Source of the DNA: a virus
Lineage: Duplodnaviria > Caudoviricetes
Virus record (IMG/VR): IMGVR_UViG_2843449061_000008
Location: 24,102 to 88,101 of that record
Length of the DNA stretch: 64,000 bases
Strand: one strand, 5' to 3'
Positions within the stretch are counted from its first letter, which is position 1, and each line of letters opens with the position of its first letter. Positions 13,719-33,922 of this stretch are shown here, piece by piece. The position numbers were made by a program, and so were the translations under genes. Under the pieces are notes generated by a model. That model did no database searches and was not told where the DNA came from. It saw only the letters and a program-made list of their open reading frames with translations.

Positions 13719-14429
13719 ATGGCCCGTGAACGGCCCCAGACCAGCGCGAAGGAGTTCATCGACCGCTTCAACGCGCTGGGGATCGTCGGCGACGATGGCC
13801 AGCCGGTGACGGTGACGAAGGGCACCGTGTCCAAGCTGGTCAACGGGCAGGAGATGCCGCTGCTCGGCGTCACCTTCACCGTCACCATGCGCTGGCTGGC
13901 GGACAACACGGACCCGACGAAGCCGAAGTCGAAGCTGGGCACCGCGGCGCAGCGGTGGTTGAGCGGGCAGGGGCCAGTCCCAACCCCGCCGGTCCCGAAG
14001 ACTCTGGGAGAGGCGCCAACGCGTCAGGCCGAAAAGCAGCCGACCGTGGTGGTGCTGCCGATGGAGGAAGGCGCTTCGGCCGGCGGCCGGAACACGACGG
14101 TCTCCGAGTCCCGGCGTGAAAAGGAACGGCTCGACGTCGAGCTGAAGAAGCGCGAACTCGCCAAGCATGACCGCGAGCACATCCCGCGGGCCGAGGTGGA
14201 GGTGGCGGTGGATGCCGCAATTACCGAGTTCCGCGGCCAGTTCGAGGGGTTCGCCGGGCTGCTGGCCCGTCAGGTCGCCGGAAAGACCGACACCGAGGCC
14301 TACACCCTGATCCAGGCTGAGGTTCGCCGGCTACTGGAGCGGTTGAGCACGAACCTGCGGAAGGCCGCGGTCGGGCTCGTCGAGGAGATGCACGACGGTG
14401 GGGCCGTCGATGAACCGGAAGGCGAGTGA
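13719..14429 (+). CDS. terS: Terminase small subunit (helper, Nu1-like)
   Basis: SESRREKERLDVELKKRELAK...IPRAEV coiled coil typical of Nu1-type TerS; overlaps the terL start. Confidence 0.7.
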   Translation: MARERPQTSAKEFIDRFNALGIVGDDGQPVTVTKGTVSKLVNGQEMPLLGVTFTVTMRWLADNTDPTKPKSKLGTAAQRWLSGQGPVPTPPVPKTLGEAPTRQAEKQPTVVVLPMEEGASAGGRNTTVSESRREKERLDVELKKRELAKHDREHIPRAEVEVAVDAAITEFRGQFEGFAGLLARQVAGKTDTEAYTLIQAEVRRLLERLSTNLRKAAVGLVEEMHDGGAVDEPEGE

Positions 14430-16242
14430 CCTTCTCAACCGGATGGCGGCGGCTCTCGATCCGCCTCCGGAGATGGAACCCGACGAGTGGGCTGAGGAGA
14501 ACATCGTCCTCCCCAAGAAGGAGGGGATGCCCGGCCCTTATCGGATGGCCCACACGCCGCAGTTCATCCCGTTCGTGCGCGCGTTCTGGGACCCGCGGTG
14601 GCGACGCATTGTCTTCGTCTGCGGCGCCCAGGAGGGGAAGTCCAGAGCCGTCCAGGCGGTGATCGGCAAGAAGCTGGACCATGAGCCGGCGCCGGTCATC
14701 TATTACGGCCCGACCAAGACCTTCGTCGAGCGCACCATCGAGCCGCGCATCGTCGAGATGCTGAACTCCTCCAAGAGCCTGAAGGGCAAGACGCTCTGGG
14801 GGAAGAAGCAGAAGAAGACGCTGAAGATGGTCAGCGGTGCGCCGCTGATCCTGAGTTGGGCCAGTTCCGGTTCCGAGTTGGCCGGTCAGGAAGCCGCGTT
14901 GGTCTTCATCGACGAACGCGACCGCCTGGCCGACGACATCGACGGCGAGGGCGACCCGGTCGAGCAGGGCGAGGCGCGTATCGGCTCCTACGCCAACGGC
15001 AAGATCGGGATCATCTCGACGCCGAAGACCGGCGTCATCCGGAAGGAGCGGCATCCTGAAACGGGGCTGGAGCATTGGGCAATCGCCGACCTCAAGAAGG
15101 TCAACAGCCCAATCATCAAGCTCTGGTGGGAAGGTTCGCGCCACGAAATGGCGTGGCCCTGCCCAGAATGCGGCGACTACTTCATCCCGCACTCTGGACT
15201 GCTGGATTGGGACGGAAAGGCTGACGGCACGGCGACGCCCGGCCAGGCGGCCCGCACGGTCAAGATGATCTGCGGATGCTGCGGGGTCCCGATCGCCGAG
15301 GCGCACAAGGAGCGGATGTGCGATCGCATGAGGCCGGTCGCGCCGGGGCAGCGGGTGGAGCCGGATGGAACGGTGGTGGGGCCTGACCCCGACACCGATT
15401 GCTTCTCGATTTGGTCCAACGGGCTGATGTCCAAGTTTAAGTCCTGGGCCAAGCTGGTTCGGCGGTGGCTTTCCGCGCTGGCGTCCGGTGAGCCTGGGAA
15501 GGTGCAGGGCGTCGTCAACACGGGCTTCGGCGAACTGCACGCCGTCTCGGGCGACGCCCCGAAGCACTCCGCTGTCACGGACTGCAAGCTGCCCTACAAG
15601 CGGGGGCAGGTGCCCTACGGCGTCCAGCGGGTTGTTCTCACGGTCGACGTGCAGAAGCGCGGCGTCTATTGGGTGATGCGCGGGTGGGGCGCCCGGCGGG
15701 AATCCTGGCTGATCGACTACGGCTACCTGCCGGGCGAAACCGACGGCGCCGAGGTCTGGGACGAGCTGGAAGGCATCGTCCGGGCCGCTCTGCCCGGCAA
15801 CACAGGCGTCAACCTGCTGCTGATTGACTCCGGCTACCGGCCCGGCAAGCCGGCGGTGGTTCCGGAGAACGCCGTCTACGATTTCTGCCGGCGGTTCAGC
15901 CGCTCGTTCGCCCGGCCCATCAAGGGCGAGCGGTACCTGACCGGCAACAAGTGGTTCACCACCACGGACAACGACGTCGACAGCCGGGGCAGGGTGCGGA
16001 AATCCGCAGGCCTGATCCTGCACCGCCTCAACACGCACGAGTTCAAGAGCCGCGTGTTCGAGAAGATCACGCGGCGCAAGGAACTGGCTGGCGGCTGGCA
16101 TGTGCCGGAGGACGTCGACGACGCTTATGCCAAGCAGATCGTGTCGGAGACCTGCCGGTGGGTGGGTGGCAAGCCGATCTGGGACGAGTTGGGCGCCAAC
16201 CACTACCTCGACTGTGAGGTGGTCCAAGCGTCTCAGAGCTGA
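14410..16242 (+). pseudogene. terL: Terminase large subunit, lambda gpA family (helper), interrupted at codon 602 by the nested element; 610-aa truncated product
   Basis: Walker A GAQEGKS, Walker B VFIDERD, CPECG zinc motif and LTVDVQK nuclease motif. Ends abruptly at NHYLDCEVVQASQS*. The native tail lies at 33724-33922. Confidence 0.9.
16208..16214 (+). other. attL core TCGACTG
   Basis: Identical to 33717-33723; flanked symmetrically by the inverted repeat ACCAC...GTGGT. Confidence 0.85.
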
Positions 16243-16268
16243 AAATACCAATTTCAGAACAATGCATT

Positions 16269-16300
16269 AGGCCCTCTCGGACCCCTCCGGAGGGCCTTTG
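16269..16300 (+). terminator. Strong hairpin just inside attL
   Basis: AGGCCCTC(t)CGGA-cccc-TCCG-GAGGGCCT followed by TTG. Confidence 0.6.
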
Positions 16301-16383
16301 TGGTCGGTAAAATCCACGTAACCGTCCGCGCCGATGATGCCGAATGGAATCAATGACTTAGGGCGCGGGCGCGGCAACGCCGC

Positions 16384-16413
16384 GACACATGAGTGACACA
16401 AGGATGACGCAAG
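16384..16413 (+). repeat. Integrase arm-type repeats (left arm)
   Basis: GACACATG 16384, GACACAAG 16395 and GACGCAAG 16406 at 11-bp spacing. AGTGACACAAGG recurs at 33657-33668. Confidence 0.7.
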
Positions 16414-16432
16414 AGAAAGGAGCCATCCCACC

Positions 16433-16717
16433 ATGAATCGAGCCTCCAACACGCCGTCCGGCGGACAGATGCTTTACGGCTACAGAGCGATTGCCGGGCA
16501 TCTTGGACTAACCGAACGGCAGAGCAAGCACCTTGTCGAAACGGGCCGTCTGCGCTTCCCCGAAGACGGGGTGGAAGGGGACGTGTTCAAGGTCGGGCAT
16601 GTCGTCTGCGCCCTGGTCTCCAGCCTGGAACGATGGAAGGAGAGGGCGGCCCGCGGCGAGCTGAGCGCCGAGAAGGAACCCGGCCATGAGCACTCCCCTG
16701 AAGGCGAGGACGCCTAA
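16433..16717 (+). CDS. Excisionase/AlpA-like winged-HTH protein
   Basis: LYGYRAIAGHLGLTERQSKHLVETGRL...FKVG; AAAGGAG RBS; first gene after attL. Confidence 0.65.
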   Translation: MNRASNTPSGGQMLYGYRAIAGHLGLTERQSKHLVETGRLRFPEDGVEGDVFKVGHVVCALVSSLERWKERAARGELSAEKEPGHEHSPEGEDA

Positions 16718-16740
16718 CCCCTCCTCCCTGTAGGCCAGCC

Positions 16741-17226
16741 ATGACGCGCAAGCCCGCCAGCTTCAAGCACAAGGACGTGAACAGCCCGCCGGAACCGTTC
16801 GTGTGGATCTCGGCTGCGCTGCTTGTGTCCCCGGCATGGCGTGCGCGGTCGATCAACTGCGTGCGCTTGATCGAGTTCTTGCAGAAGGAGCACATGGCCC
16901 ACGGCGGGAAGGAGAACGGCAACCTCGCGGCACCCTATGACCAGCTTCAGGCATGGGGGATCGGGCGGCGCCTGATCCGTCCGGCCATCGAGGAGGCGGA
17001 GACCCTGGGGCTAATTGCGGTGCGCCGGGGCGGGAAGCGCAACGCGGTGGAGGATCATGTCAGCCGCTACCGGTTGACCTTCTACCCATCCCGCATCGTG
17101 CCCACGGACGGGCTCCCGCATTGGGAAGCGCCGACCGATGAATGGAAGCGCATCACGCCCGAGATGGCCGAAGAAGCCACCTGCCGGGCCTCGTCGAAAA
17201 TTAGGGTCTCAGGTTCACCTTCGTGA
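16741..17226 (+). CDS. Putative wHTH replication initiator of the satellite
   Basis: PFVWI...LL.SPAWR..S....RLIEFL..EH..HGG.ENG.L..PY...GI....I..AI.E...LGLI pattern; iterons begin inside its last codons. Confidence 0.6.
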   Translation: MTRKPASFKHKDVNSPPEPFVWISAALLVSPAWRARSINCVRLIEFLQKEHMAHGGKENGNLAAPYDQLQAWGIGRRLIRPAIEEAETLGLIAVRRGGKRNAVEDHVSRYRLTFYPSRIVPTDGLPHWEAPTDEWKRITPEMAEEATCRASSKIRVSGSPS

Positions 17227-17332
17227 ACCGTCTCAGTTCACCTTCGTGAACTCCCTCAGTTCACCTTCGTGAACTTTTGGCGGGCGCAAACCCAGCAAAT
17301 CCGCCACCTGGGTAAAGTTCACCTTCGTGCAC
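17213..17332. repeat. Satellite origin iterons GTTCAC-CTTC-GTGAAC
   Basis: Exact copies at 17213, 17236 and 17259 (23-bp period) and a one-mismatch copy at 17317. Confidence 0.85.
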
Positions 17333-17492
17333 TCCTTCTAATATCTTGGGTGTATCCCCCGAGAAATCGGCACCTGCCGATCACCATCACCACCACCCGC
17401 CGCCGACAGGCGGCGCACTCGGAACCGGCCCTGGTCCTGACGACCTCCGCCGCCGGCCCCGCCTTCATCCCTTCACACCGGAGACCTTCGCC

Positions 17493-17744
17493 ATGTCGAG
17501 TCCCGACACGGACAGCATCATCGCGACCATTCCGAAGAATGCGACGGAAGAGGTTCGCATCACCCTGACCAGCTACAACGGCCATCCGCTCGTTGATCTG
17601 CGGACCTTCGTTGAATACCGGACGACCGGTGAGTCCGGCCCGACCAAGAAGGGGCTGACGGTCGCTGTTGCGCTGCTCCCCGCCATCATCTCCGGCCTTC
17701 AGGATGCCGAGGCTGAAGCCCGCCGCCGGGGGCTGTTGCCATGA
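17493..17744 (+). CDS. PC4/p15-like single-stranded DNA-binding protein
   Basis: IATIPKNATEEVRITLTSYNGHPLVDLRTF...PTKKGLTV matches the PC4 fold; GGAGA RBS. Confidence 0.8.
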   Translation: MSSPDTDSIIATIPKNATEEVRITLTSYNGHPLVDLRTFVEYRTTGESGPTKKGLTVAVALLPAIISGLQDAEAEARRRGLLP

Positions 17745-18043
17745 CCCGCGATTCCATCATCGCCGCCCTGGTCAGTCGCAGCATGACGGCCAGCGCCGGC
17801 CCGGTGGAGAAGGCCGCCCGGTATCACGAAGTCGCCGCCGCGGTGAACGCCGCCGGACGCTACGCCGCACCGGCCCTGATGCTGGTGCAAGACGCTGAAG
17901 GCGACGTGCTGGCCGCTTTCGCCGCGCAGGTCGATGCGCTCCGCAGCACCGAGCCGAAGGCCAGCCCTGCACCCACTCCCGTCATCCGCCCGTCATCCTG
18001 GCGCCGGGAGATGGCGCGCGTCGTCAACCCGAGAGGATTGTGA
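17741..18043 (+). CDS. Hypothetical protein (100 aa)
   Basis: Overlaps the upstream stop by 4 bp. Confidence 0.55.
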   Translation: MTRDSIIAALVSRSMTASAGPVEKAARYHEVAAAVNAAGRYAAPALMLVQDAEGDVLAAFAAQVDALRSTEPKASPAPTPVIRPSSWRREMARVVNPRGL

Positions 18044-18044
18044 A

Positions 18045-18242
18045 ATGGACCGCATCGAAGCCCTGACTTTGCTCGCCGCCCCGCTGCTCCGCCAGCGCCG
18101 GCCCGTTCGGCTGTCTCGCATCAACGCCGGCTTGGTCGCCGCCGGTCATGCGGAGACCACGGTGGAGGAATTGGCAGCGCTGGCCCGGCCCGTGTTGGTC
18201 GCGGGCTGCACCGAGGAAGACGAGACTGAAGCGCTGGCGTGA
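18045..18242 (+). CDS. Small hypothetical protein (65 aa)
   Basis: ATG 1 bp after the upstream stop; GAGAGG RBS. Confidence 0.5.
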   Translation: MDRIEALTLLAAPLLRQRRPVRLSRINAGLVAAGHAETTVEELAALARPVLVAGCTEEDETEALA

Positions 18243-18346
18243 CCGTGGAGGGGCTTGTCGGGTTCGCGGGCTATCTCCGGACCCTCGCGCGGCAGACCGC
18301 ATCCACGGGCCTTCTGAGCTTTAGCTAAGGGCCATCGGGAAAGGCA

Positions 18347-18395
18347 CGGGTCCTTCCGGGGCGATTCTACCGGGGGTGGCCCCCGCCTCAGCACC
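18347..18395 (+). promoter_or_regulatory. Putative satellite cos site (cosQ-like GGGTCCT at 18348-18354)
   Basis: CGGGTCCTTCCGGGG followed by symmetric C-GGGGGTGGCCCC-G (18371-18384), about 90 bp upstream of terS. Confidence 0.65.
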
Positions 18396-18474
18396 TCTCC
18401 AGGCACGAACCGTCCTTGGGGGTTCCTGATCCGCCTCCCGTCAGCAAATTTTCCTACCGACAAGGATCTTCGGA

Positions 18475-18963
18475 ATGGCGACACAAACCGAAGTCGGGAA
18501 GCATCTCGACCTGTCCGACCGCTCCGTGCGGGAGTTGCTGGAGCGGGGAGTCCTGCCGAACGCTGCCCGCGGCGCCCTCGACCTCGACTGGTGCCGAACC
18601 TCCTACATCCGCCATCTGCGGGAAATGGCCGCGGGCCGGGCGACCGGGCCGGCCGGTGACGACCTGACCAGCGAACGCGCCCGACTGGCCCGCGAACAGG
18701 CGGACAACATCGCCCTGAAGAACGCGGCGCTGCGGAAGGAGCTGCTTCCACGCTCCGACATCACCCGCGCCGTGGTCGCGGCGTTCCAGATCGTGCGCGA
18801 CCGGCTGTCAGCCCTGCCGGCGCGGCTGGCTGGGCCGCTGGCCGCGACCACCGATCCGGCGGAAGTGCGCGGGCGGCTGAGCGACGCGGTGAACGGCGTG
18901 CTGGTGGAGCTGAGCGAAACGCGCGTTGTCGCCACCGTCGAGGAGCCGGCTGATGCGGCTTGA
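18475..18963 (+). CDS. terS: Terminase small subunit (satellite, Nu1-like)
   Basis: MATQTEVGKHLDLSDRSVRELLERGVL wHTH; DLTSERARLAREQADNIALKNA coiled coil. Confidence 0.88.
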   Translation: MATQTEVGKHLDLSDRSVRELLERGVLPNAARGALDLDWCRTSYIRHLREMAAGRATGPAGDDLTSERARLAREQADNIALKNAALRKELLPRSDITRAVVAAFQIVRDRLSALPARLAGPLAATTDPAEVRGRLSDAVNGVLVELSETRVVATVEEPADAA

Positions 18964-20848
18964 CCTTCCTGTGTCCGAGCTGGTGGCGGAAACGGCGACT
19001 GGGTGGTTCCCGGCGCTGCGGCCGGCGCCGCGGTTGTCGCTGGCCGAATGGGCGGAGCAACACGCGCGCCTCTATGACGGTGGCGCCTTCAGGCCCTACG
19101 CCTATCAACGGGCGATCCTCGACGCGATGACCGACCCGGCGGTGCGCCGAATCACGCTCATGAAGTCGGCGCGCGTCGGCTACACGCAAATGCTGTCGGC
19201 GGCGCTGGGCTACTTCGTTGCGCAGCGGCCTTCCAAGATCATGGTGGTTCAGCCCACCACCGAAGACGCCGAGGACTACAGCAAGGACACCATCGATCCC
19301 TTGGGCGAATGGCCGGTGCTGGCCGGGCTGCTGTCCGAGGTGAAGGCCAAGACCAAGGGCAACACCATCAAGCGCAAAGCCTTCCCCGGCGGTTCGCTGC
19401 GCATCACCGGGGCGAACAGCCCACGCGCCTTCCGCCGCATCGACCTCGACGTGCTGCTGTTCGACGAGGTGGATGGCTATCCGCCGATGGCCGGGAAGGA
19501 AGGTGACCAGATCGCGTTGGGCCTGAAGCGCCTGACGCAATCGCTGCATCCCTTGGCCGTGCTGGGGAGCACGCCGCTTCTCGACGGGGAAAGCAAGATC
19601 GCGGACGCCTTCGCGGCCGGGACCATGGAGCGTTACCATTTGCCGTGTCCCTGCTGCGGGGAGCTGCAAGCGCTGGTGTGGGGCGACGGGACCGGGCCGG
19701 GCATGCGCTGGACGGACAACGACCCGGACACCGTGCATTACGTCTGCGTCAACGGGTGCCCCTTCGGCGAGGAACACAAGCTCGACCTGCTGGAGCGCGG
19801 GCGTTGGATCGGGGAGACGCCGCGCAAGGATCATCGCAGCTTTCACATCTGGAGCGCCTATAGCCCGCTGCCCGGCGCGGCGTGGCCCGAGCTGGTCAAA
19901 GAGTTCCTGGCCGCCAAGCGCGATCGGGAAAAGCTGCAAGTCTGGACCAACACCGTGTTGGGTGAGTGCTGGGTGGACCGTGGCGAGGCCCCGGAGTGGC
20001 GGCGGTTGTACGACCGGCGCGAGACCTGGGAGCCGGGCACCGTTCCGGCCGGCGGGCTTTTCCTGACGGTCGGCGCCGACGTGCAGCGCGACCGGATCGA
20101 GGTGAGCGTGTGGGCATGGGGCCGGGGCAAGGAGTCCTGGCTGATCGAGCATCGGGTGTTGCCGGGCGATCCGTTCCAGGCGGCTGTCTGGCGCGACCTG
20201 ACTTCGCTGCTGGCGGAGACCTGGCGCCACGAAAGCGGCACCGACCTGTCGGTGATGATGACGGCCATTGACGCGGGCGACGGCGTGACGATGGAGGCGG
20301 TGAAGGCGTGGGTGCGCAACGCCGGCCCGCGCGTCATGGCGATCAAGGGCAGTTCGCTGGCGCTGGCGCCGATCCTGGGCCAGCCGTCCGCTGCGGACGT
20401 GAACTATGGCGGCCGGAAGATCGCGGGCGGGGTGAAGCTCTGGCCGGTGGGCACCAGCGCGGCGAAGTCCGAGTTCTACGGCTTCCTGCGCCTCGACCGC
20501 CCGACCGAGGAAAGCGGCGAGCCGTTCCCGGCCGGCTTCGTCCACATCCCGCAGCATGTCGGCGAAGAGACGGTGAAACAGCTCGTCGCGGAACATCGGG
20601 TGACCCGCGGCGGCAAGGGCCGGCGCAGCGTCACCAGTTGGGAAAAGCTGCGGGATCGGAACGAGGCCCTGGATTGCCGAAACTACGCCCGCGCGGCGGC
20701 GGCCCGGCAAGGGCTGGAGCGCATGAACGACCCGGCATGGTCGGAGCTGGAGCGGGCCTTGGGTGTGCCCCGTGATCCGGCTGTGCCGGTGGCCACAGCG
20801 GCGCCGACGGCGCGGCGGGTGTCCCGCTCGTCCTGGCTGTCGGAGTAG
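18953..20848 (+). CDS. terL: Terminase large subunit, lambda gpA family (satellite, intact, 631 aa)
   Basis: KSARVGY (lambda gpA Walker A), LLFDEVDGY, CPCCG, GADVQRDR and RNEALDCRNYARAA. Confidence 0.93.
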   Translation: MRLDLPVSELVAETATGWFPALRPAPRLSLAEWAEQHARLYDGGAFRPYAYQRAILDAMTDPAVRRITLMKSARVGYTQMLSAALGYFVAQRPSKIMVVQPTTEDAEDYSKDTIDPLGEWPVLAGLLSEVKAKTKGNTIKRKAFPGGSLRITGANSPRAFRRIDLDVLLFDEVDGYPPMAGKEGDQIALGLKRLTQSLHPLAVLGSTPLLDGESKIADAFAAGTMERYHLPCPCCGELQALVWGDGTGPGMRWTDNDPDTVHYVCVNGCPFGEEHKLDLLERGRWIGETPRKDHRSFHIWSAYSPLPGAAWPELVKEFLAAKRDREKLQVWTNTVLGECWVDRGEAPEWRRLYDRRETWEPGTVPAGGLFLTVGADVQRDRIEVSVWAWGRGKESWLIEHRVLPGDPFQAAVWRDLTSLLAETWRHESGTDLSVMMTAIDAGDGVTMEAVKAWVRNAGPRVMAIKGSSLALAPILGQPSAADVNYGGRKIAGGVKLWPVGTSAAKSEFYGFLRLDRPTEESGEPFPAGFVHIPQHVGEETVKQLVAEHRVTRGGKGRRSVTSWEKLRDRNEALDCRNYARAAAARQGLERMNDPAWSELERALGVPRDPAVPVATAAPTARRVSRSSWLSE

Positions 20849-20937
20849 ACGGCCGGCCCCGGCGCCATCTCCGAAGTTGAACGAATCGGCCAACAGTCCT
20901 ATGGTTAGGCAATTATACCCTATTGAGGATAATTGTC

Positions 20938-25364: not shown

Positions 25365-25531
25365 ACGGTTTGCGCCAGCTTCTCAAAGCTAGTCCATTCT
25401 GTTTTTCCCAGCCAATCACGGAACAGAATCAGGTGATGCGATTGCACATCCGAAGCTGTCCGCGATGGCCCGCCGGAACGGCATAAACAATGCTGCTACG
25501 GCGTGACATGGGCAGCAATGTTCGACCCTGG

Positions 25532-25565
25532 AGCCGGCCGGCGCGTCTTGCCCGGCCGGCTTTTC
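25532..25565 (+). terminator. Intrinsic terminator/attenuator
   Basis: AGCCGGCCGG / CCGGCCGGCT 10-bp stem plus TTT, directly before the next RBS. Confidence 0.6.
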
Positions 25566-25579
25566 TATGCGAGGTGACC

Positions 25580-25897
25580 ATGAGCAAGCCTGATTCGTCG
25601 TGCCCGGCCGTTGAGGTGCTGGACCTTCGCCTGTCGGACGGGATCGGGCAGACGCTGGCCGTTGCCGTCGTTCAGGTGGGGCCGGTGGAGATCCGTAACG
25701 TGCGGGTGACCGACCGGGACGGACGGCTGTTCGTTCGGCTGCCGGGCACCCTCATGAGGAGGCGGCTGAAGCCGGCCGTCTGCCTCGACGAGCCGGTGTT
25801 TCTGGAGCTGCGCGAAGCGGTGTTGGCGGAGTACCGGGAGGTGGCCGGGGCGGACCCGTGGGGCGACGAGCGAGGCAGCAGAACGGCAGATGCCTGA
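25580..25897 (+). CDS. SpoVG-like nucleic-acid-binding protein
   Basis: LAVAVVQVGPVEIRNVRVTDRDGRLFVRLP resembles the SpoVG core; GAGGTG RBS. Confidence 0.55.
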   Translation: MSKPDSSCPAVEVLDLRLSDGIGQTLAVAVVQVGPVEIRNVRVTDRDGRLFVRLPGTLMRRRLKPAVCLDEPVFLELREAVLAEYREVAGADPWGDERGSRTADA

Positions 25898-26032
25898 GCT
25901 GGGTGGAGAAGAGAAAAACCTATTCGATTGGAGCGGTTTGCGGTTCTATCTACAGAATTAATGTCGCTGAAAAGACGCATTTATGGTACACATAACCCCT
26001 CATGCTAGAACAAGAAACAGAGATGCACGAAA

Positions 26033-26542
26033 ATGTCTATTTACCCCATCGGTGGAGCCTCTAGCTTTGATGACATGCCCAAGGGAACGATGTTTTACGG
26101 GGAGGTGGGTGACAAGATCGTTCTTCTTTTCCGTTGTGCAAAGGTAATAAGTCAATCTACAGAAGATATCGAATACGCTGCGGTCTTCGACAGGCAAGTG
26201 ATACCGCATATCGGTAACCCTATTGTTATAGAAGGAGCTTCGTATTTTACTAACAAGTTGTTTGAGGTGAGGGGTTCTTATGTGAAGCCCGATCTTTCCT
26301 CTATGGATCTGTCCTACAATAACCCGAAGTTAGGGGATATAGTTTACTTTGAGTCCGCGGCTTACTTTGTCTTGGCGAGTGAGCGGCATGGGCGCATGTA
26401 TGTCAACATTGATACGGGATATGCGCTTGAGAACGTGAACCACGACCTGCCGCGCGCGATTTTCAGAAGATGGAGCATTGTGCAGCGGGTGTTCGACCGT
26501 GAGGAGGTGCTTTTCACTTACGAGCCTGCCCCGGCTCGGTGA
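26033..26542 (+). CDS. Hypothetical cargo protein, low GC (169 aa)
   Basis: AT-richer ORF with protein-like composition; no family recognised. Confidence 0.65.
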   Translation: MSIYPIGGASSFDDMPKGTMFYGEVGDKIVLLFRCAKVISQSTEDIEYAAVFDRQVIPHIGNPIVIEGASYFTNKLFEVRGSYVKPDLSSMDLSYNNPKLGDIVYFESAAYFVLASERHGRMYVNIDTGYALENVNHDLPRAIFRRWSIVQRVFDREEVLFTYEPAPAR

Positions 26543-26581
26543 GTGAAGCGTTCGGCCTGCCGCGGACCCGGCCGGGGCGGG

Positions 26582-26856
26582 CCTGTAACACACCTTGACC
26601 GCCCTGTGTTGCAGCCTGTAACACAGGGTGTGTTGCAGGCTGTGTTGCAGGTGATCCGCCATGGCGACCCCGACCATTTCCGTTCGCGTATCTCCAGAAC
26701 ATCAAGGGCTTGTCCGAGACGTGGCGGCCCGGCTGAAGGCCGATCCCGGCTTTGCTGACGTGCTGCGCGCCGCGCTGGGGGAGGGTGTGACACAGCCTGT
26801 CATACAGCCTGTGTTACGGCTTGGATCGCGGGGTGTGACACAGGCTGCAACACAGG
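26582..26856. repeat. Two blocks of five 11-12 bp near-palindromes (CTGT-N3-ACAG-like)
   Basis: Block 1 at 26582-26651 upstream of the 26661 gene; block 2 at 26785-26856 inside it. Examples: CTGTAACACAG, CTGTGTTGCAG, CTGTCATACAG, GTGTGACACAG. Confidence 0.8.
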
Positions 26857-27227
26857 TGGACGGCCAGACCGCTCACCAGCGCCAGCCCGCGCCCGAAGGC
26901 CAGCCCGATCCTGCGGCCGGCGCCCTGGCCGATGTCCTGCGCCGGGTGGAGGTGCTGGAGGCGCATGTTGCCGACCTCCGGGGCAAGGCTGGCCGGCAAG
27001 CCAAGGTAGCCAGCCAACAGCAACGGCTGATCGCCGCCGCGGGGCTGGAAGGCGTCATGACCCGCCTGCAATACGCCGCGCACATCGGCGTGTCCAACCC
27101 GACCCTGACGCGCTGGGTGAAGCGGGGAATGCCGGTGCAGGACGATGGGCTGCTCGACGTCGAGGCGGTGGAGAGCTGGCGGAAGGCGAACGAGTCCCGG
27201 CTCCTGGCGGAGAGGGTGAAGGGGTAG
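26661..27227 (+). CDS. DNA-binding protein: RHH-like N-terminus, coiled coil and Nu1/MerR-like wHTH C-terminus
   Basis: TISVRVSPEHQGLVRDVAARL; MTRLQYAAHIGVSNPTLTRWVKRGMPV...LDVEAVESWR. Confidence 0.6.
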   Translation: MATPTISVRVSPEHQGLVRDVAARLKADPGFADVLRAALGEGVTQPVIQPVLRLGSRGVTQAATQVDGQTAHQRQPAPEGQPDPAAGALADVLRRVEVLEAHVADLRGKAGRQAKVASQQQRLIAAAGLEGVMTRLQYAAHIGVSNPTLTRWVKRGMPVQDDGLLDVEAVESWRKANESRLLAERVKG

Positions 27228-27435
27228 GGGGGGGCGGGCCGGCGACACCGGCCCGAGCGTCTACGAGGCCGGCGTCTACCGAAACAGTTTATTAGCGATA
27301 ATTTCGAATACGTGATGCGTGTGTTTAACTGATTCTGGTATAGCAGTCGGATGCCACGTGCGATGATAAGTCGTAGTGGAGTTGTTTAAGAGGCACCAGC
27401 TGGTGTTGAATCAGTATTAAAGGAATGGGGTCGAA

Positions 27436-28173
27436 ATGGAAATAACTCGAATCGAAAAATTTTCGGAATCGCAAGATTTCGGCCGCGAGACTCCAAAATT
27501 CGAACTTGATTATTTTGGTAAAGATCTAATGGACCATAATGGTATAAAGTGGATTTATTTGATATGCCCTCATTGCGGGACGCGTGTTAAATTTTCACCC
27601 ATACATGTTGTCGTGGTTAAGGGGGAAGAGCTTGGCATGCTGACTCGTGATTACCATTATCTTTGCAAATGCGAGTATTGCAACGATGTTGTTTATGCCA
27701 AATTTTGGGAAGTCGACTTTGATCCTGATTGGCATTTCGCGTATGAGATGCATTTCCCGGCGGCTATATTCAATGGAAGCGTTGATCTGCCAGAGCAAGT
27801 CAATGTATCGTTTTCAGAGGCCACGAAGTGTTTAAACGCGGATGCCAGCTTAGCTACTCTTGTTATGTGCCGTCGCACTGTTGAAGCTATAGTAAGAGAC
27901 AAGGGGGGTTCGAGTGGTGGTGGCCTATATTCTGAAATAGATAAGTTAATCAAGGATGGCACCCTCCCTGATTCCATGGGTCGCCTTGCGAATGTTATTA
28001 GGATGGTAGGCAATAAGGGTGCGCATGCATCTGAACTTGCCACGGATAGCAAGCAGGCTAGGGATGCGTATGAACTTACGAAGAAAATGATTGATGTAAT
28101 TTATCTGGTTCCAAGGCAGGTGCATGAAATAAGGAGCAAGCTTGAACAAGAAAAATCCGTTAAAACGGAGTGA
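27436..28173 (+). CDS. DUF4145 (HEPN-like) protein with an N-terminal zinc finger
   Basis: CPHCG...CEYC; ATLVMCRRTVE; IRMVGNKGAH (R-x-x-GN-x-x-AH); low GC. Confidence 0.8.
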   Translation: MEITRIEKFSESQDFGRETPKFELDYFGKDLMDHNGIKWIYLICPHCGTRVKFSPIHVVVVKGEELGMLTRDYHYLCKCEYCNDVVYAKFWEVDFDPDWHFAYEMHFPAAIFNGSVDLPEQVNVSFSEATKCLNADASLATLVMCRRTVEAIVRDKGGSSGGGLYSEIDKLIKDGTLPDSMGRLANVIRMVGNKGAHASELATDSKQARDAYELTKKMIDVIYLVPRQVHEIRSKLEQEKSVKTE

Positions 28174-28225
28174 GGAATAATATAGGATATGCCGACTGAA
28201 TAAAGACGTAAGTAATTAGTTTTTC

Positions 28226-29257
28226 ATGATACGTCAATCAATCCAAAAATGGAGTGCTAGGCAAATGAAAGCAACAACAAGTGAGCTTCGCGTCAAAAAC
28301 CACAACGAGTGGCCCGCTGTCGAATTATTCCCCTGTGAGATTGAGCTTCTACAGAGGTTGGCGCAAAAGAATATGCAGCAAATCTTTATCACGGCTAGGT
28401 TCATGCCTGATGAAAAGGATGAACCATTTAACGCCGCAGTAGGACACATATTGGACTGTCTGGATTCCCTACCAAAACGTCCTGACGCAGCTTTTGATAG
28501 CCTATACAAGGTTATTGATAGCAACCTTGCGGAATTTTCTGAGCCCAATTTGTCCCCCATGCATAGCACTGTAAAAGCCTTTTTTTTGGCTCACCCATCC
28601 GAATGGAGCAAAATTACCGAGATCTTGTCTGCTAATTTGCCTCAGCAAACCGCAGACTACGCGGCATCGCGTATTCTCGATTGCCACGTTGATGGCGGGC
28701 TTCCCCATGCCGATGAAATAAAGAAAAGAGCCAGCAGAAGCCTAGGGAAGCAGCGCTATAAAGATTTCTGTGAAAAATATCTTGTAGAAAACCCGCAGAT
28801 GCAAGGTAGCTACAGCATGCCATACGAAAACAGGAGGAATGCTGGCCGCTTGATGAAGTTACTATTTAGATTAAAGAAATCCGGTGATTGCTCTGGCGAT
28901 GTCAGCAAAATTGAGGCAAGTGACCAGATGGGGGTGCAATACAATAGTCTGGATTTGGGGGAAGACTGCAATAGGCTTTCTTCTGATGAAAAGTTAAAGG
29001 TGATAATGGAGGCTTGTCTTTATACGTACAGAAATGAGCGCTTCCACGGAGATGCATTTTCGCCATTCAGAAGCGGAAAAGCAAAACTTAAGACGTATGC
29101 GCATGCCTATTTTATGTTGAATGCGGCTTACGTTATTGTGCTTGGCATGCTTCATTTGCAAGGGAAAGGGGGTATTTCTATTTCGCATATTGTTGAGATA
29201 ACAATTCGGTCTATGCAGCAATTCGCGGCATTCTTTGAAGATGTTGTTAACGAATAG
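28226..29257 (+). CDS. Putative HEPN-domain protein (343 aa)
   Basis: LYTYRNERFHG fits the HEPN R-x4-H motif; helical character; low GC. Confidence 0.6.
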   Translation: MIRQSIQKWSARQMKATTSELRVKNHNEWPAVELFPCEIELLQRLAQKNMQQIFITARFMPDEKDEPFNAAVGHILDCLDSLPKRPDAAFDSLYKVIDSNLAEFSEPNLSPMHSTVKAFFLAHPSEWSKITEILSANLPQQTADYAASRILDCHVDGGLPHADEIKKRASRSLGKQRYKDFCEKYLVENPQMQGSYSMPYENRRNAGRLMKLLFRLKKSGDCSGDVSKIEASDQMGVQYNSLDLGEDCNRLSSDEKLKVIMEACLYTYRNERFHGDAFSPFRSGKAKLKTYAHAYFMLNAAYVIVLGMLHLQGKGGISISHIVEITIRSMQQFAAFFEDVVNE

Positions 29258-29465
29258 AATGTCGAGGACGGTACTAGACGGCCCGTTTGTAGCTCGGTAA
29301 CTGCGGCGGCGTACTGCTGCTCCAACTCAGCCACATACGTGATGGCTTGCCTAGCCATACCCTCCAAGGCGCCGAGCCCAAGCCGCGCTGCGCGGCCTTC
29401 TGAGGGGGGCTTACGGAGTAGGGCAGGGCGGCTCATCTTGGCCGGACTGCTGGCACCCGAAAAGC

Positions 29466-29500
29466 AGAAGCCCGCCGGGTCTCCCGCGGCGGGCTTTCTT
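29466..29500. terminator. Bidirectional terminator between convergent cargo genes
   Basis: AAGCCCGCCG / CGGCGGGCTT stem with A- and T-rich flanks. Confidence 0.7.
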
Positions 29501-29625
29501 AGGGCGCTGGGTGGCGATCCAGCTGACGGTGATTGGGTTCTGTGGCGTATGGGGCAACCTGGGTTGCCCCCTCTGCCTTGGGCGCGTTGGGCGGGATTCT
29601 GAAGGTTAGTCATAGTGCGAGAAAC

Positions 29626-30114
29626 TTAGGTTTCGGGACTCTTCTTCGATTTGACGAATTTGTATCCTTCTCGGAAGCCATGAAGCTGCCCGCAAAGGAA
29701 ATTAATGGAAGCCCTCAATTGTATTGCGGTATCGTTCGCACTTTTCCTGGCTTCTGAAGTTCCGCTGACGCCAACATCATCTAAAAATTTATTTATATAT
29801 TCATCTATTTTAGGATGCTCAATATTATGAGCTATCTTGTTTCTAAGAGTGTTTAGCTTCTCGGCGCTGTCTAAAAGCGCATCAACATGGCGCACAGGGA
29901 GTAGTGCTCTTACTAGCCGTAATCTTTGCGCAAATCGAAATTGATCAACATCAATAGCGGTGGGGTTTGCTAAAAGATCCACCATAAAACCATTAACTAT
30001 TTCTTCCATCAGGAGATGCCCCTTTAGCACTACTAACGTGACATCGTTTGATGTTGGAAACAGCCTTTCAAATCGCTCATCAAATTCCTCAAAACTTGTT
30101 TTTTCGAATGACAT
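29626..30114 (-). CDS. Putative stand-alone HEPN protein (MtlR-like fold)
   Basis: VLKGHLL.E...F..R..L..AL...LNTLRNKIAH (R-x4-H); AAGGAGG RBS; low GC. Confidence 0.65.
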   Translation of the reverse strand: MSFEKTSFEEFDERFERLFPTSNDVTLVVLKGHLLMEEIVNGFMVDLLANPTAIDVDQFRFAQRLRLVRALLPVRHVDALLDSAEKLNTLRNKIAHNIEHPKIDEYINKFLDDVGVSGTSEARKSANDTAIQLRASINFLCGQLHGFREGYKFVKSKKSPET

Positions 30115-30159
30115 GCAACCTCCTTATCAATGGGTGTACTTATTACACTTAGCGCGCTA

Positions 30160-30262
30160 AGTTTTTTCAGGTGTCGATCGGGCTTCTGCAGATAGCCCCG
30201 CTCGACCAACCAAGCCTTCAACACTCGCTCGACCAGCGACGACACAGACCGGTCATCGTCCT
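30160..30262 (-). pseudogene. Orphan C-terminal half of a ribbon-helix-helix (CopG-like) gene
   Basis: A frame overlapping the repressor stop reads KDDDRSVSSLVERVLKAWLVERGYLQK and has no proper start. Confidence 0.4.
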
Positions 30263-30504
30263 TCGTCGGCTTTCCTCAACCGTACCCCCGCACCCCCGCC
30301 ATTCTCCGGGATGAACTCGACGCCAGCCGCTTCCATGGCCGTGCGGATAGCGATGAGGGTGCGCGGCTGAGGTGCTGTATCCCCTTTCTCAAACCGGACA
30401 AGGGATCGCTTCGCAACCTCTCCGTTGGTTGCTTCGGCAAGCTCATCTTGACTCCAGTTCAAGAGTCCCCTGGCCGCACGGCATTGGGCTGGTGTTATCG
30501 ACAT
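30253..30504 (-). CDS. XRE-family HTH repressor (satellite master regulator)
   Basis: ITPAQCRAARGLLNWSQDELA...FEKG...GVEFIPENGGGAGVRLRK; divergent from the antirepressor-like gene. Confidence 0.88.
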   Translation of the reverse strand: MSITPAQCRAARGLLNWSQDELAEATNGEVAKRSLVRFEKGDTAPQPRTLIAIRTAMEAAGVEFIPENGGGAGVRLRKADEGR

Positions 30505-30566
30505 GGCACTTTTAGTGACATTCATTGTTGACCGATGCCATCACGATATGGCACTTTTAGTGACAT
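30503..30566. promoter_or_regulatory. Twin 19-bp operators ATGGCAC-TTTTA-GTGACAT
   Basis: Identical copies at 30503-30521 and 30548-30566, each a one-mismatch palindrome, between divergent genes. Confidence 0.8.
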
Positions 30567-30575
30567 AGCAAGCGC

Positions 30576-30618
30576 GGCCGAACCGGGTGTTGGGAGCATC
30601 CGGCCCGGCCTGACCACA
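30576..30618 (+). promoter_or_regulatory. Structured leader hairpin ahead of the antirepressor-like gene
   Basis: GGCCG-aa-CCGGGTGTT-ggg-AGCATCCGG-c-CCGGCC nested stem followed by CTGACCAC. Confidence 0.4.
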
Positions 30619-30643
30619 ATCGAGCTGCATGGAGCTACGGATC

Positions 30644-31861
30644 ATGGCTGATTCCGAGAATACCACACCCTTGCCCGGCGCCGGCCGCCGGAAAACGGCT
30701 GGCGCCCTGGTGCCGACCAAGCCCGCCGACCTGCCGCCGCTGACCCCCGACCAACTGAACGACCAAGACGGCGAGCCGCGGGTGCTCGACCTCGCTCTTG
30801 CTGAGCGTCTGGGCTTCTCCGACGTTCACAAGGTCCGCGCCCTGATCGAACGGAACCGCTCCGAGCTGGAGAGCTACGGAGTTATTTCCGCCGCCGTGGC
30901 GGAAAACACCGATCCCAAGGGCCGAGGCCGCCCCGGCAAAGCCTACTACCTGAACGAAGGCCAAGCCCTGGTCATCTGCGCCCTGTCCCGCACCCCGCAA
31001 GCCGCCCTGGTGCGCCGGCAGATCATCGAGGTGTTCTTGGCTTACCGGCGGGGCGTGCTGCCCGTGGCCGAGGAACAGCAACAGACCATCGCCCACCTCG
31101 CCGCGGAGCTGGCCGACCTGCGCCAGCGCGTCGCCCTGATCGGCGCGGCCCCGCATATCCGGGCGATCTTCAAGGGCGGCTACCTGCCGGGGTCCACCGC
31201 TTTGACGGTGCAGGACATCAGCATGGAATGGGACGAGCCGCGCATCTCCGACCAGCGGCTTGCGGTCCAGCTCGGGCTGCCGGACATGCACACCGTGCGC
31301 AAGCTGATCCGTTCGCACCGGAACCTGTTGGCCGGCCTGGGCCGGATCGTGAGCGTCCCGCAGGTGAAGGAGACGGACGGGAAGGGGCGCCCGCTCGGCG
31401 CCTTCTGGCTAACCGAGTTGCAGGCCCTGGCCGTCTGCGGGCTGGTGAGCGGCAATGTCGCGTCGGCGACCCGAACCCGGCTGATCAAGGTGTTCGCCGA
31501 GTTCCGCCGCGGGCAGGAGGAGCTTGCGGCAGCCGGCGGCATTCGCGAGGTGCGGAACAACGCCGAGATGGTGGTGATGCTGGATGAGCGGGTGGCGGCC
31601 CTGGAGGCGAACGCCCGCACCGAGTCCCGCACGGAGGTGCGGCGCCAGCGCCGGCGGGTTGCCGACGAGGCGCTTACAGAGGATGGGGACTTGCTCTACG
31701 GCGGCCCGCGCATCGCGGCCTATCTGGGCGTTCGGCTGAAGTCCGTCGAACACATGATTCGTTCCGACAAGCTGCCTCACTTCCGCATGTCCGGGCGGGT
31801 GTGTTCCCGCAAGACCCTCCTGGGCGCGTGGCTGGACGGTAAGGAGGTGGTCAATGCTTGA
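30644..31861 (+). CDS. Antirepressor-like protein: two tandem Rha/KilA-like domains plus a C-terminal excisionase-type HTH
   Basis: Repeat EPR..D..LA..LG......VR.LI......L...G...GRP...YL.E.QAL..C...R..II.VF...RRG occurs twice; C-terminal LLYGGPRIAAYLGV. Confidence 0.7.
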   Translation: MADSENTTPLPGAGRRKTAGALVPTKPADLPPLTPDQLNDQDGEPRVLDLALAERLGFSDVHKVRALIERNRSELESYGVISAAVAENTDPKGRGRPGKAYYLNEGQALVICALSRTPQAALVRRQIIEVFLAYRRGVLPVAEEQQQTIAHLAAELADLRQRVALIGAAPHIRAIFKGGYLPGSTALTVQDISMEWDEPRISDQRLAVQLGLPDMHTVRKLIRSHRNLLAGLGRIVSVPQVKETDGKGRPLGAFWLTELQALAVCGLVSGNVASATRTRLIKVFAEFRRGQEELAAAGGIREVRNNAEMVVMLDERVAALEANARTESRTEVRRQRRRVADEALTEDGDLLYGGPRIAAYLGVRLKSVEHMIRSDKLPHFRMSGRVCSRKTLLGAWLDGKEVVNA

Positions 31862-32381
31862 GCCATTATCCCGCCGCTCCATCCTGGCCGGCGCGTCCGC
31901 GGTGGCCCTGGGCGGCCCGGCGCCGGCGGATGCTGTGGATCCTTTCGGCGCCGCTATCGCCTCGCTCGAAGGGCATGCGCCCGCCGCTGAGTCCGACCCC
32001 GCCATTGCGGTCTGCGCGCGGTGGGTGAAGGCGTGGCGGGATGTGTCGGAGGCCGCCGACCGGTCAGGGGATCGGATGGGGCAGCTCCGTGCCGCGGGCT
32101 TCACCGATGAGGCGATAAGCGAGGACCCCGAATACAGGGTCTTGGATGCCTCCTTCAGCCGCCTGGAGCGGGAAGAGGACGATCTGCGCAACGAAGTCCC
32201 TACGACCCCTGCCACGACCCTCCATGGCGTCATTGCGAAGCTGAGCGCTTGGCGGATGGAGGAGGAGCACTACGGGACGGGGGGTGATGAGAGGTTCGTG
32301 CACTCCGCTCTCTCCGACCTCCGCCGGCTGGTGCATGGCGAGGCCGGCCCGGCACTGCTGCCTGATCGCCTGGGCGCCTGA
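31854..32381 (+). CDS. Hypothetical protein with a twin-arginine-like N-terminus
   Basis: LSRRSILAGASAVAL; P.TL.GVIAKL motif seen in small phage proteins. Confidence 0.6.
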   Translation: MLEPLSRRSILAGASAVALGGPAPADAVDPFGAAIASLEGHAPAAESDPAIAVCARWVKAWRDVSEAADRSGDRMGQLRAAGFTDEAISEDPEYRVLDASFSRLEREEDDLRNEVPTTPATTLHGVIAKLSAWRMEEEHYGTGGDERFVHSALSDLRRLVHGEAGPALLPDRLGA

Positions 32382-32498
32382 CCGGCCCGGCCGCACTGAC
32401 GGGGTGCGCGATCTGCGCACCCACCCAACCACACCTGAACCGCGGCGACGGCGCTGGGCATCCCCGGCGCCGCGCCCGTTCCAATCTGGAGAACCATC

Positions 32499-33695
32499 AT
32501 GGCTTCTGTGAACAAGCGCCGTTGGTCCCACAACGGCGTCGAAAAAGAGGCGTGGATTGTCCGCTACGTTGATCACTCCGGAAAGCGGAGGGGGAAGACG
32601 TTCGATAAGAAAAAGGACGCCGACGCTTATAAAAGAAAAGTGGAAGCGGACATGGATAACGGGCTGCATGTTCCGGATGGCGATACCGACACGATCAAGG
32701 GCATGGGGGAGAAGCTATTAAGGCATCTTGAGCTTCGTCAGTTGAACGGCGGACTGTCGAGGCAGAGGCTTTACATTTACAGACTCGCTTTTGACCGGGG
32801 TGTTGTGCCGTACATTGGGAACGTCAAGCTTTCAGAATTGAATTTCTCGCACCTTGACGCATGGTGGTTGGAGCTGTCGAAGACGAGTATTTCGGAAAGG
32901 ACGCGCCGCGATTACCTGAAGTGTCTGAAAGTCCTTGAGAGCTTCGCCATAAAGCGCGGAGCGTCGAAAAAGGCCGTCGTTCCCGGCTTCATCAAGGAGC
33001 TTGGCACACTGCCGGAAAAGCCGATCCGGGTGCTGAACTCCGAACAGGTCGGCCGGCTGCTTGAGGTGGTCGAGGAGCGCCCCAAGGGCAAGCAGCGGCG
33101 GACACACGCGATCCTGCGGTGCGCCGTCCATCTCGCCGCTTTCTGCGGCCTTCGGTTCGGGGAGATCATGGGGCTGACCGTGGTCAACCTGGACCTCGAC
33201 GCGCAGGTGATCCAGGTCCGGCACAGCCTGAACGTCTTCGGAGAGCTGAAGGGACCGAAGACCGCGGCCGGCCGGCGCGACGTGCCCATCCCGTCGCACG
33301 TCGCCGAGATGCTTCGTGAATGGCTGCGGACCTCCTTCATCCCGAACGAGCGGGGGTTGGTGTTCCGCACGGACGGTGGCGGTGACATGGCCCTGACCAA
33401 CTTTCACAAGTTCTGCTGGAAGCCTCTGCTGCGCCGGGCCGGGCTTTGGGACGAGGGCGGGGACCAGTACCATTTTCACGCCCTTCGGCACTTCGCGGCG
33501 AGCTTCATGATTCAGAACGGGCTGCCGGTGACCGACGTGGCGTCGATGCTCGGGCACCGCAAGTTCGACACCACCTTGCAGGTCTACGCGCACCCCATCG
33601 TCGGGGGGAGCCGCCGGCTTGAAACCGCCGAGACCATGGCCCGGCTGCTGTTGGTCAGTGACACAAGGGAGACACAAGAGACCCTAACACCTTGA
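32499..33695 (+). CDS. int: Tyrosine recombinase / integrase (satellite)
   Basis: N-terminal arm-binding domain (W.VRY.D.SGKRR.KTF); catalytic GLRFGEI, HALRHFAAS and LGHRKFDTTLQVYAH. Confidence 0.95.
   Translation: MASVNKRRWSHNGVEKEAWIVRYVDHSGKRRGKTFDKKKDADAYKRKVEADMDNGLHVPDGDTDTIKGMGEKLLRHLELRQLNGGLSRQRLYIYRLAFDRGVVPYIGNVKLSELNFSHLDAWWLELSKTSISERTRRDYLKCLKVLESFAIKRGASKKAVVPGFIKELGTLPEKPIRVLNSEQVGRLLEVVEERPKGKQRRTHAILRCAVHLAAFCGLRFGEIMGLTVVNLDLDAQVIQVRHSLNVFGELKGPKTAAGRRDVPIPSHVAEMLREWLRTSFIPNERGLVFRTDGGGDMALTNFHKFCWKPLLRRAGLWDEGGDQYHFHALRHFAASFMIQNGLPVTDVASMLGHRKFDTTLQVYAHPIVGGSRRLETAETMARLLLVSDTRETQETLTP
33657..33678 (+). repeat. Integrase arm-type repeats (right arm)
   Basis: GACACAAG at 33660 and 33671, 11-bp spacing, same orientation as the left arm. 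Confidence 0.7.
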
Positions 33696-33716
33696 TTTGA
33701 AAGGGCGGAAATTACT

Positions 33717-33723
33717 TCGACTG
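33717..33723 (+). other. attR core TCGACTG
   Basis: Identical to 16208-16214; 21 bp after the integrase stop. Confidence 0.85.
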
Positions 33724-33922
33724 CGAGATGATGCAGGAGGCGGCGGCGGAGATCCTGAAGTTCCGCCTACTGCCGCTGCTGCCGCCCGCGCCTGAAGGGG
33801 ATGACGATCAAGCCGACCAGGCGCAGGTGCCGGTCCTCAGCGAGCAAGTTAAGGCGCCGCAAAACTCGTCCGCATCAAGCGCTCCGCAGATTGCTCGAAT
33901 GGGCAGAATTCCCGGCCTTTAA
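33724..33922 (+). pseudogene. terL: Orphaned 3' end of helper terL (65 residues after the DC motif)
   Basis: Reads (C)EMMQEAAAEILKFRLL...IPGL*; joins in frame to 14410-16214 and ends 11 bp before the gpW-like gene. Confidence 0.85.

Follow-up and report, generated by a model that had tools for sequence, protein, structure and literature searches.

The window analysed here, a 64,000-nt stretch of DNA, is part of an 88,101-bp provirus record of the IMG/VR database (IMGVR_UViG_2843449061_000008) with a completeness rating of 100 %. The outer element, referred to below as the helper, is a lambda-like prophage, probably of an Azospirillum host, and its gene for the large terminase subunit, terL, is interrupted at conserved LDC codons by an insert of 17,509 bp (16215-33723). 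The 5' part of terL (14398-16242, + strand) encodes the gpA-type ATPase and most of the nuclease domain and runs into seven codons derived from the insert and a stop, so that the open reading frame (ORF) ends ...NHYLDCEVVQASQS at 16242. Its product, of 614 aa, matches Pfam GpA_ATPase (4e-39) and GpA_nuclease (2e-48, profile positions 5-280 of 294) and is 98 % identical to a 674-aa TerL of Azospirillum argentinense. The 3' part (33724-33922, + strand), encoding the last helix, a Pro-rich linker and a portal-type-specific tail, survives as an orphan frame that reads NYFDCEMMQEAAAEILK...ARMGRIPGL and ends with a stop at 33922, just 5' of a gpW-like gene and the portal gene. A preliminary description of this DNA had proposed a satellite sited site-specifically in the helper terL, with the integrase gene beside attR and the gene restorable by excision; this anatomy proved to be correct.

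The identity block TCGACTG, reported there as duplicated, was located at both ends of the insert: at attL (16208-16214, +), where it forms the crossover core on the L-D-C codons, and at attR (33717-33723, +). The heptamer alone is unremarkable (3 copies in the window vs 8.5 expected), whereas the 18-nt degenerate pattern TACYTCGACTGYGAGRTG is present in the window solely at the two junctions, with 0.11 occurrences expected. Joining position 16214 to 33724, i.e. deleting 16215-33723, yields an uninterrupted frame whose product has 671 aa if translation starts at GTG 14398 or, as had been claimed, 667 aa if it starts at ATG 14410, the latter being the start used in the closest homologue. The joined TerL can be aligned end to end with a 672-aa homologue and is 95 % identical to the 674-aa A. 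argentinense protein. Alignment placed the orphan peptide at the C-terminal ends of the intact TerL proteins of L005 (683 aa) and L006 (678 aa), and the L006 protein also ends in ARMGRIPGL. The rebuilt attB is identical to the natural unoccupied terL of L057 at 42 of 42 nt and to that of L058 at 41 of 42 nt, despite TerL proteins that are just 58-59 % identical to that of the window. The junctions predicted after excision are ...CACTACC-TCGACTG-CGAGATGATG... for attB and ...AATTACT-TCGACTG-TGAGGTGG... for the attP of the satellite.

The D and E of the LDCE motif are invariant in an alignment of 40 homologous sequences. No functional replacement of the terL end is brought by attP, in which LDCE is followed by just seven unrelated codons and a stop. 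The replacement of the TerL end by unrelated residues was thus seen as first described, with a different count: seven residues stand in for 64, where 8 for 65 had been given, because the E of LDCE is retained. attP resembles the target codons (Y-[LF]-D-C-E), and the simplest explanation is that core-type sites are bound there by the integrase, not that selection has acted on the truncated protein.

The satellite gene for a tyrosine integrase (32499-33695, +; Phage_integrase 4e-24) has its stop at 33695, confirming the distance of 21 bp given earlier between the end of int and the right core. The integrase has no Arm-DNA-bind_3 domain, and its residues R219-K254-H327-R330-H353-Y363 are invariant in the integrase alignment. 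A doubled GACRCAAG motif is found in the P arm of attP (33660-33680, +; 37-57 bp before the core) and in the P' arm (16395-16415, +; 181 bp after the core). This pattern occurs exactly twice in 64 kb, against 0.02 occurrences expected by chance, both copies being the two arms of the reconstructed attP, and it lies beside int in a sister satellite too; it is a candidate arm-type integrase or excisionase site. With the end of int near the core, intact catalytic residues and a doubled motif confined to the arms, the unit resembles a real integrase substrate. Just inside the left end a GC-rich hairpin is followed by TTTGTGG (16269-16297, +; RNA fold of -25.9 kcal/mol, z -2.85), which would be 3' of int and attP in the excised circle. 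Equivalent hairpins are present just inside attL in L009 and in a Xanthobacter element. A strict terminator and promoter scan of 16000-19000 gave no matches, so the hairpin at attL is supported by folding alone, and no Rfam family matched within 12000-36000.

All satellite genes are on the + strand, co-oriented with the helper late operon, except for one helix-turn-helix (HTH) repressor gene on the minus strand. The first gene (16433-16717, +) encodes a small HTH_17-like protein, a putative excisionase/AlpA analogue, whose homologues are encoded directly 5' of int in L014, L022, L036 and L040. The window protein itself gave no Pfam match; it is 33 % identical to the product of the first gene of the sister satellite (L055), the latter matching HTH_17 at 7e-5. 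Four 23-nt repeats, each with a GTTCAC..GTGAAC palindrome, form a candidate iteron or operator array (17212-17338, +) in front of a gene for a protein with a PC4-like ssDNA-binding domain (17346-17744, +; Pfam PC4 1.3e-9).

The head and packaging module of the satellite (all +) begins with terS (18475-18963; phrog_57 terminase small subunit, 6.5e-29), homologues of which are carried inside the L009 and Xanthobacter elements. It continues with a complete gpA-family terL of 640 aa (18926-20848; GpA_ATPase 2e-57, GpA_nuclease 5.5e-94 over profile positions 1-292 of 294), a lambda-family portal gene (20923-22383; Phage_portal_2 3.9e-94) and a fusion of prohead protease and major capsid protein (22304-24238; Phage_capsid_4 3e-46, weak DUF2213), the true start of which is probably near 22370 and which is 92 % identical to a 622-aa gene product of the sister. 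A gpW-like head-tail adaptor, Ad1 (24241-24456; phrog_2545 2e-17), and a head decoration or cement protein (24453-24803; Phage_cement_2 4e-20) complete the module. The satellite TerL is just 25-29 % identical to that of the helper, the two portals are 36 % identical, and in a blastp comparison of the insert ORFs with the rest of the window the matches were confined to terL and portal. At the LDC codons the satellite terL reads CTGGATTGC, so it offers no self-target for integration.

The head genes are followed by a variable cargo region recognised by its low GC content (25000-30250; 44-59 %), which differs in content from that of the sister (L052/L055) save for a partial copy of a 188-aa gene. 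The region includes an anti-phage defence gene of the DUF4145/PD-T7-4 type (27436-28173, +; Pfam DUF4145 3.5e-17, PADLOC PD-T7-4 6e-13). Next to it are the gene for an HTH repressor of the control protein type (30253-30525, -; PADLOC Control_protein 8e-10), with homologues in the L017, L018 and L052 elements, and, transcribed divergently, the operon of a Rha/Ant (Bro-network-like) regulator with a C-terminal HTH_17-like domain (30629-31861, +; phrog_63 Ant 1e-12, phrog_518 Rha; Pfam Phage_pRha and HTH_17 matches both weak). An ORF of 175 aa separates the regulator gene from int. Profile searches gave no tail-family match among the ORFs of the insert, ten of which are small and without a family; the NCBIfam models gave no matches to these ten either.

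The sister element, found in another assembly, encodes an integrase 86 % and a capsid protein 92 % identical to those of the window and shares the tail-less layout, with cargo that is for the most part different; an HTH_36 protein is encoded at the position that the iteron-like array and the PC4-like gene have in the window. Its left junction, CACTGCA-TCGACTG-CGAGTTGGTC, has the same core as the window, while its right end is interrupted by IS66, with a transposase gene directly after int (features at 1880-2210 and 19960-20216 of L055). The same tail-less plan combined with differing cargo argues for a stable design and not for recent decay, and the sister looks like an off-target copy of this design that is likely immobilised.

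These data bear on the possibility that the insert is a remnant of a temperate phage that entered terL and lost its tails, with both elements inactive and nothing regulated. Such dead-end nesting would agree with a head module that is fully phage-like and related to that of the real tailed prophage L009, with low-GC cargo in the place of tail genes and with the lack of a recognised replication module in the insert; many helpers of enterobacterial embedded satellites also appear truncated (PMC10111431). It is nevertheless unlikely, given that the satellite head genes, the integrase gene and both halves of terL are intact, without a frameshift or stop, that the sister repeats the tail-less layout with other cargo in another genome, and that the outer prophage, in a record rated as fully complete, encodes its own integrase, RecT, helicase, head and tail genes. 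The other members of the integrase lineage, moreover, are elements of 10-20 kb with terS, Bro/Ant-type and defence genes, in which no head or tail gene was recognised.

The integrase lineage, with 345 homologues at E<=1e-60, was followed through homologues (33-61 % identical) found among viral contigs, assemblies and the genomes of GTDB species. This gave 28 distinct loci with readable sequence 3' of int, which were classed by the gene directly after int. In 16 of the 28 loci, in Alphaproteobacteria, int adjoined a truncated head or packaging gene: 12 had terL, three the portal gene and one a protease gene. A 5'-truncated terL of the gpA family was found in 7 loci (the window, L054, L009, L017, L018, L019 and L023); the Terminase_1 family accounted for 4 loci (L012, L037, L038 and L031) and another family (phrog_9) for one (L029). 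Portal fragments followed int in L027, L011/L034 and L022, and a fragment of a ClpP prohead protease in L020. Four further loci were in other phage head or tail neighbourhoods (L010/L041, L024, L021 and L040), one was the chromosomal off-target copy described above (L052/L055), and seven (L008, L025, L028, L030, L033, L036 and L039) were left unclassed. No gpA domains were found in the records of L008 and L010-L013, some of which adjoin other terL families or portal genes.

In three genomes the upstream half of terL was located at a distance of 10.3, 11.6 or 19.9 kb, in a fourth it was on a separate contig, and each of these split-terL loci has its own core sequence. L054, whose integrase is 61 % identical to that of the window, occupies the same C-terminal terL site, with the order int, FDAEMM... 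(a 47-aa terL end), gpW, portal. The other elements of the lineage measure 10-20 kb. Their content comprises terS, regulators of the Bro/Ant or Rha type, HTH_17-like genes and sizeable cargo of the defence type, and none of their genes was recognised as encoding a capsid, portal, TerL or tail protein. In a quick maximum-likelihood tree the window, the sister, L054 and L017 cluster together, and one well-supported clade brings ClpP sites and Terminase_1 N-terminal and C-terminal sites together among close relatives. It is hardly credible, in the light of these loci, that the window is an assembly artefact joining two phage contigs. The record is a computationally delimited provirus, and specific support for such a join was not found; both junctions share a core and are in frame, and the arrangement was found again in genomes and read sets independent of this one.

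Several members of the lineage have features of their own. In Sphingomonas laterariae the ClpP prohead-protease fragment after int (L020:11193-11603) starts near profile position 116, which is close to the enterobacterial site C:CLP_protease:110 described below, reached here via an integrase unrelated to the published clade. The 19.9-kb terL-embedded element of Xanthobacter sp. DSM 24535 (L046:6409-16174) encodes a 2003-aa DUF4011-helicase-REase_MTES_1575-DUF3320 protein, an SbcC/SbcD-like pair and a ParA-like ATPase, which look like large defence cargo in a terL-embedded satellite. The 11.6-kb terL element of a metagenome-assembled genome labelled Proteobacteria carries a second tyrosine recombinase gene near its left end (L045:13237-14295), besides the terminal integrase gene.

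The consequences of the interruption for the helper were judged by comparison of TerL proteins. The motif NH[YF]LDCE..AAA, with an Ala-rich helix after it, is near-universal among 45 homologues, and all 45 inspected proteins run at least 35 aa beyond LDCE; none ends there. The cut takes away this helix, the linker and the terminal tail. The last ~20 TerL residues were compared in six phages, which have three tail types, and the tail type was found to follow the portal type and not the identity of the TerL core. The window and L005, with TerL cores 98 % and portals 37 % identical, have unrelated tails, whereas the window and L006 (core 54 %, portal 72 %) have a common ARMGRIPGL end. A common SSWRTPNM end is found in L005 and L057 (core 58 %, portal 69 %) and a common RRVRS-G end in L058 and L059 (core 58 %, portal 77 %); the tails of L057 and L058 (core 80 %, portal 24 %) are unrelated. 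This co-variation suggests that the cut takes away a likely portal-docking module. The extreme C-terminus of lambda gpA reportedly binds the prohead portal (Yeo and Feiss are said to have described this in 1995). Taken together with that precedent, the co-variation makes it very likely that the truncated TerL would be unable to dock on helper proheads. The claim that the integrated element disables the helper TerL is in this sense well supported by comparison, while it is still drawn from sequences. Among solved structures no sequence match to the gpA-family profile was found.

It could be argued that the satellite is embedded in terL and gates nothing, the LDC codons being a conserved address that marks a helper, with helper DNA packaged via the truncated TerL or that of the satellite. 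An att site on invariant codons would suit a pure addressing role, the truncated protein retains its ATPase domain and a nuclease match that extends to profile position 280 of 294, and a complete gpA-family TerL is supplied by the satellite in the same cell. That TerL, however, has only the low identity to the helper protein given above and another tail, and it is paired with its own terS and portal; the specific docking role implied by the tail-portal co-variation and the lack of any inspected homologue ending at LDCE also make this alternative quite improbable.

The preferred explanation, which we regard as likely, is that the insert is a tail-less, capsid-forming satellite resembling the phage-inducible chromosomal islands (PICIs), embedded in its helper, and that restoration of terL on excision gates helper packaging. 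Since attP brings no replacement for the terL end, the integrated state permits only a truncated helper TerL. Upon induction of the helper the satellite would be excised by its integrase, with the HTH_17-like protein encoded inside attL as the putative excision directionality factor; its gene comes first after the interrupted terL and could be reached by late transcription from the helper, provided that this gets past the hairpin. Excision would rebuild terL exactly. The satellite circle would then be packaged by its own TerS and TerL into its own capsids, which would take tails, probably with the FII-type connector, from the helper, and helper packaging would be impossible until the satellite is out. 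Before that, the embedded satellite would be replicated passively with the helper, which may explain why no replicase was recognised.

Several points weigh against this explanation. Both catalytic domains are nearly complete in the truncated TerL, which may therefore have some residual activity. Excision, particles and the gating of packaging by excision are inferred here from the genes. The sister occupies a chromosomal site next to a GntR gene, which shows that elements of this lineage can also live outside terL. The assignment of the HTH_17-like protein of the window as an excisionase is weak. Family searches recognised no primase or replicase in the satellite, in which the ten small ORFs are without a family.

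The presence of a satellite in such a target is not new, as the preliminary description had supposed it might be. Helper-embedded PICIs (HE-PICIs) were published in 2023 by Tommasini, Mageeney and Williams (PMC10111431), who listed 491 elements at 14 sites in nine lambda-cognate late genes, all from Enterobacteriaceae, with the terL sites A:Terminase_1:132 and 245/246 among the targets. Expression of the late gene solely after excision of the satellite is the published logic, and in E. coli excision of an embedded PICI was measured after the composite had replicated (PMC10111431). The window satellite and the HE-PICIs (founder Eco567.11capE, from E. coli NRG857c) are alike in having an attP without a replacement, so that the gene is whole solely after excision. 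In both, terL is among the targets, the integrases of one lineage have switched between late-gene sites, some copies lie off target in the chromosome, the attP core has a doubled motif on either side, and defence cargo is combined with Bro/Ant-type regulators. As in HE-PICIs, the window satellite is co-oriented with the interrupted late gene and is embedded in an outer prophage having its own integrase.

The differences concern the hosts (Enterobacteriaceae only vs Alphaproteobacteria here), the integrase and the gene order. The 11capE integrase has a P4-type Arm-DNA-bind_3 domain, absent from that of the window, with which it shares 23 % identity over 181 aa (pairwise E 0.001), and in the quick tree it forms a branch of 4.6 units outside 27 alphaproteobacterial integrases. 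In HE-PICIs int is at the upstream end together with alpA, and the order is int-alpA, Bro, replication (primase) and late genes; in the window satellite int is the last gene, beside attR, with Rha/Ant just 5' of it, and no primase was found. The doubled arm motif of HE-PICIs, TGTATTGC, lies at about -81 and +132 of attP, as compared to GACRCAAG here; no copy of TGTATTGC was found near either junction, and its count in the window equals chance. The published site list is without the C-terminal LDC site of gpA-family terL, and the window satellite, unlike HE-PICIs, has a complete set of terS, terL, portal, protease/capsid and adaptor genes. Membership in the 11capE integrase clade was rejected on the divergent integrase, the absence of the arm motif and the other gene order; the way of life is the same.

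A second comparison is with the capsid-forming PICIs (cf-PICIs). These elements, as Alqurainy and colleagues reportedly described in 2023, are of ~15-18 kb and carry an integrase gene, their own terS, terL, portal, protease, capsid and adaptor genes and no tails; they are said to occupy chromosomal sites apart from the helper and to have alpA and primase/replication modules. The cf-PICI head and packaging set is present in the window satellite, with its own terS, terL, portal, protease, major capsid and head-tail adaptor genes. The likeness to the described cf-PICIs in having head and packaging genes and no tails implies that tails alone would come from the helper, while the window element differs in being inside the helper terL and in lacking a recognised primase or replicase. 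With the skin element in sigK, the Listeria comK prophage and SpyCIM1 in mutL a gene is likewise split by an element that brings an integrase and is restored, at a set time, by precise excision, but the gene interrupted here belongs to another mobile element, the helper phage, and it is presumably the inserted parasite that benefits and not the host cell. A search of open-access full texts for 'helper-embedded' turned up no later publication in which embedded satellites were capsid-forming or came from Alphaproteobacteria.

A broader proposal is put forward tentatively, at somewhat less than even confidence: the integrase lineage may be independent of the enterobacterial clade and may have arrived by convergence at a specialisation for phage head and packaging genes (terL in 12 of 28 loci), its capsid-forming members cutting TerL exactly between the enzymatic core and the portal-docking tail so that the satellite would package first, alone, and the helper only once the satellite is gone.

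Further helper genes were recognised on both sides of the satellite. A GC3-supported ORF just 5' of terL and overlapping it (GC3, GC content at third codon positions; 13719-14429, +) was assigned as terS by position, and its product is 92 % identical to that of the ORF upstream of the intact terL in L005. On the other side of the satellite are the genes for the gpW-like adaptor (33934-34143, +; tblastn to L006 gpW) and the portal (34149-35687, +; tblastn to the L006 portal, 73 % identity). The head and tail block of the helper spans 35706-53483 on the + strand. It includes an S49 protease (35706-37304, +; Pfam Peptidase_S49), an FII-like head-tail attachment protein (38804-39643, +; Pfam Phage_attach) and a 3242-aa tape measure protein (43755-53483, +; homology to L021), none with a counterpart in the satellite.

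A cos-like site common to the helper (12531-12560) and the satellite (18347-18376) was considered and rejected, as the similarity is weak (just 73 % over 30 nt and one 13-nt block). Short similar blocks, CGGGTCCTTCC..GGGG and GCAGA.CGCATCCA, lie 5' of the terS regions of both elements. In the helper late region, among the structural genes, the product of an ORF of 157 aa (41110-41583) matches the Acb2/Tad1 hairpin domain (Pfam 3.8e-8) and is a candidate anti-CBASS/anti-Thoeris nucleotide sponge. A tRNA-Arg(ACG) gene (10306-10396) lies within a long GC3-rich open frame (9411-11612), which is therefore probably not a single gene. A low-GC block at the right end of the provirus (61-63 kb) encodes a P22_AR_N antirepressor-domain protein (61542-62180), homologues of which are encoded immediately 5' of the integrase gene in six satellite loci (L010, L012, L023, L025, L027 and L041). 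This suggests that Bro/Ant-type regulators are exchanged between helper and satellites.

Relative to the published systems, the host class Alphaproteobacteria and the gpA C-terminal site are new. An integrase lineage for which no relationship to the published clade could be demonstrated, other than membership of the tyrosine-recombinase family, appears to be new, and so does the co-variation of the TerL tail with the portal, and not with the TerL core, across the six phages compared. An embedded satellite with its own head and terminase genes also appears new, this being the first case found.

Composites of this kind are scored as a single large provirus with two terminases (here of 88 kb) and can mislead the detection of prophages and satellites. 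The cut at invariant codons that part the catalytic core from the portal-co-varying tail amounts to a natural dissection of TerL, and the capsid-forming and helper-embedded strategies are joined in one element. The findings suggest that residence in a late gene of the helper extends beyond a single integrase clade of enterobacteria: in another bacterial class, a recombinase lineage unrelated to that clade appears to have reached the same solution, with a clear bias towards terminase genes.

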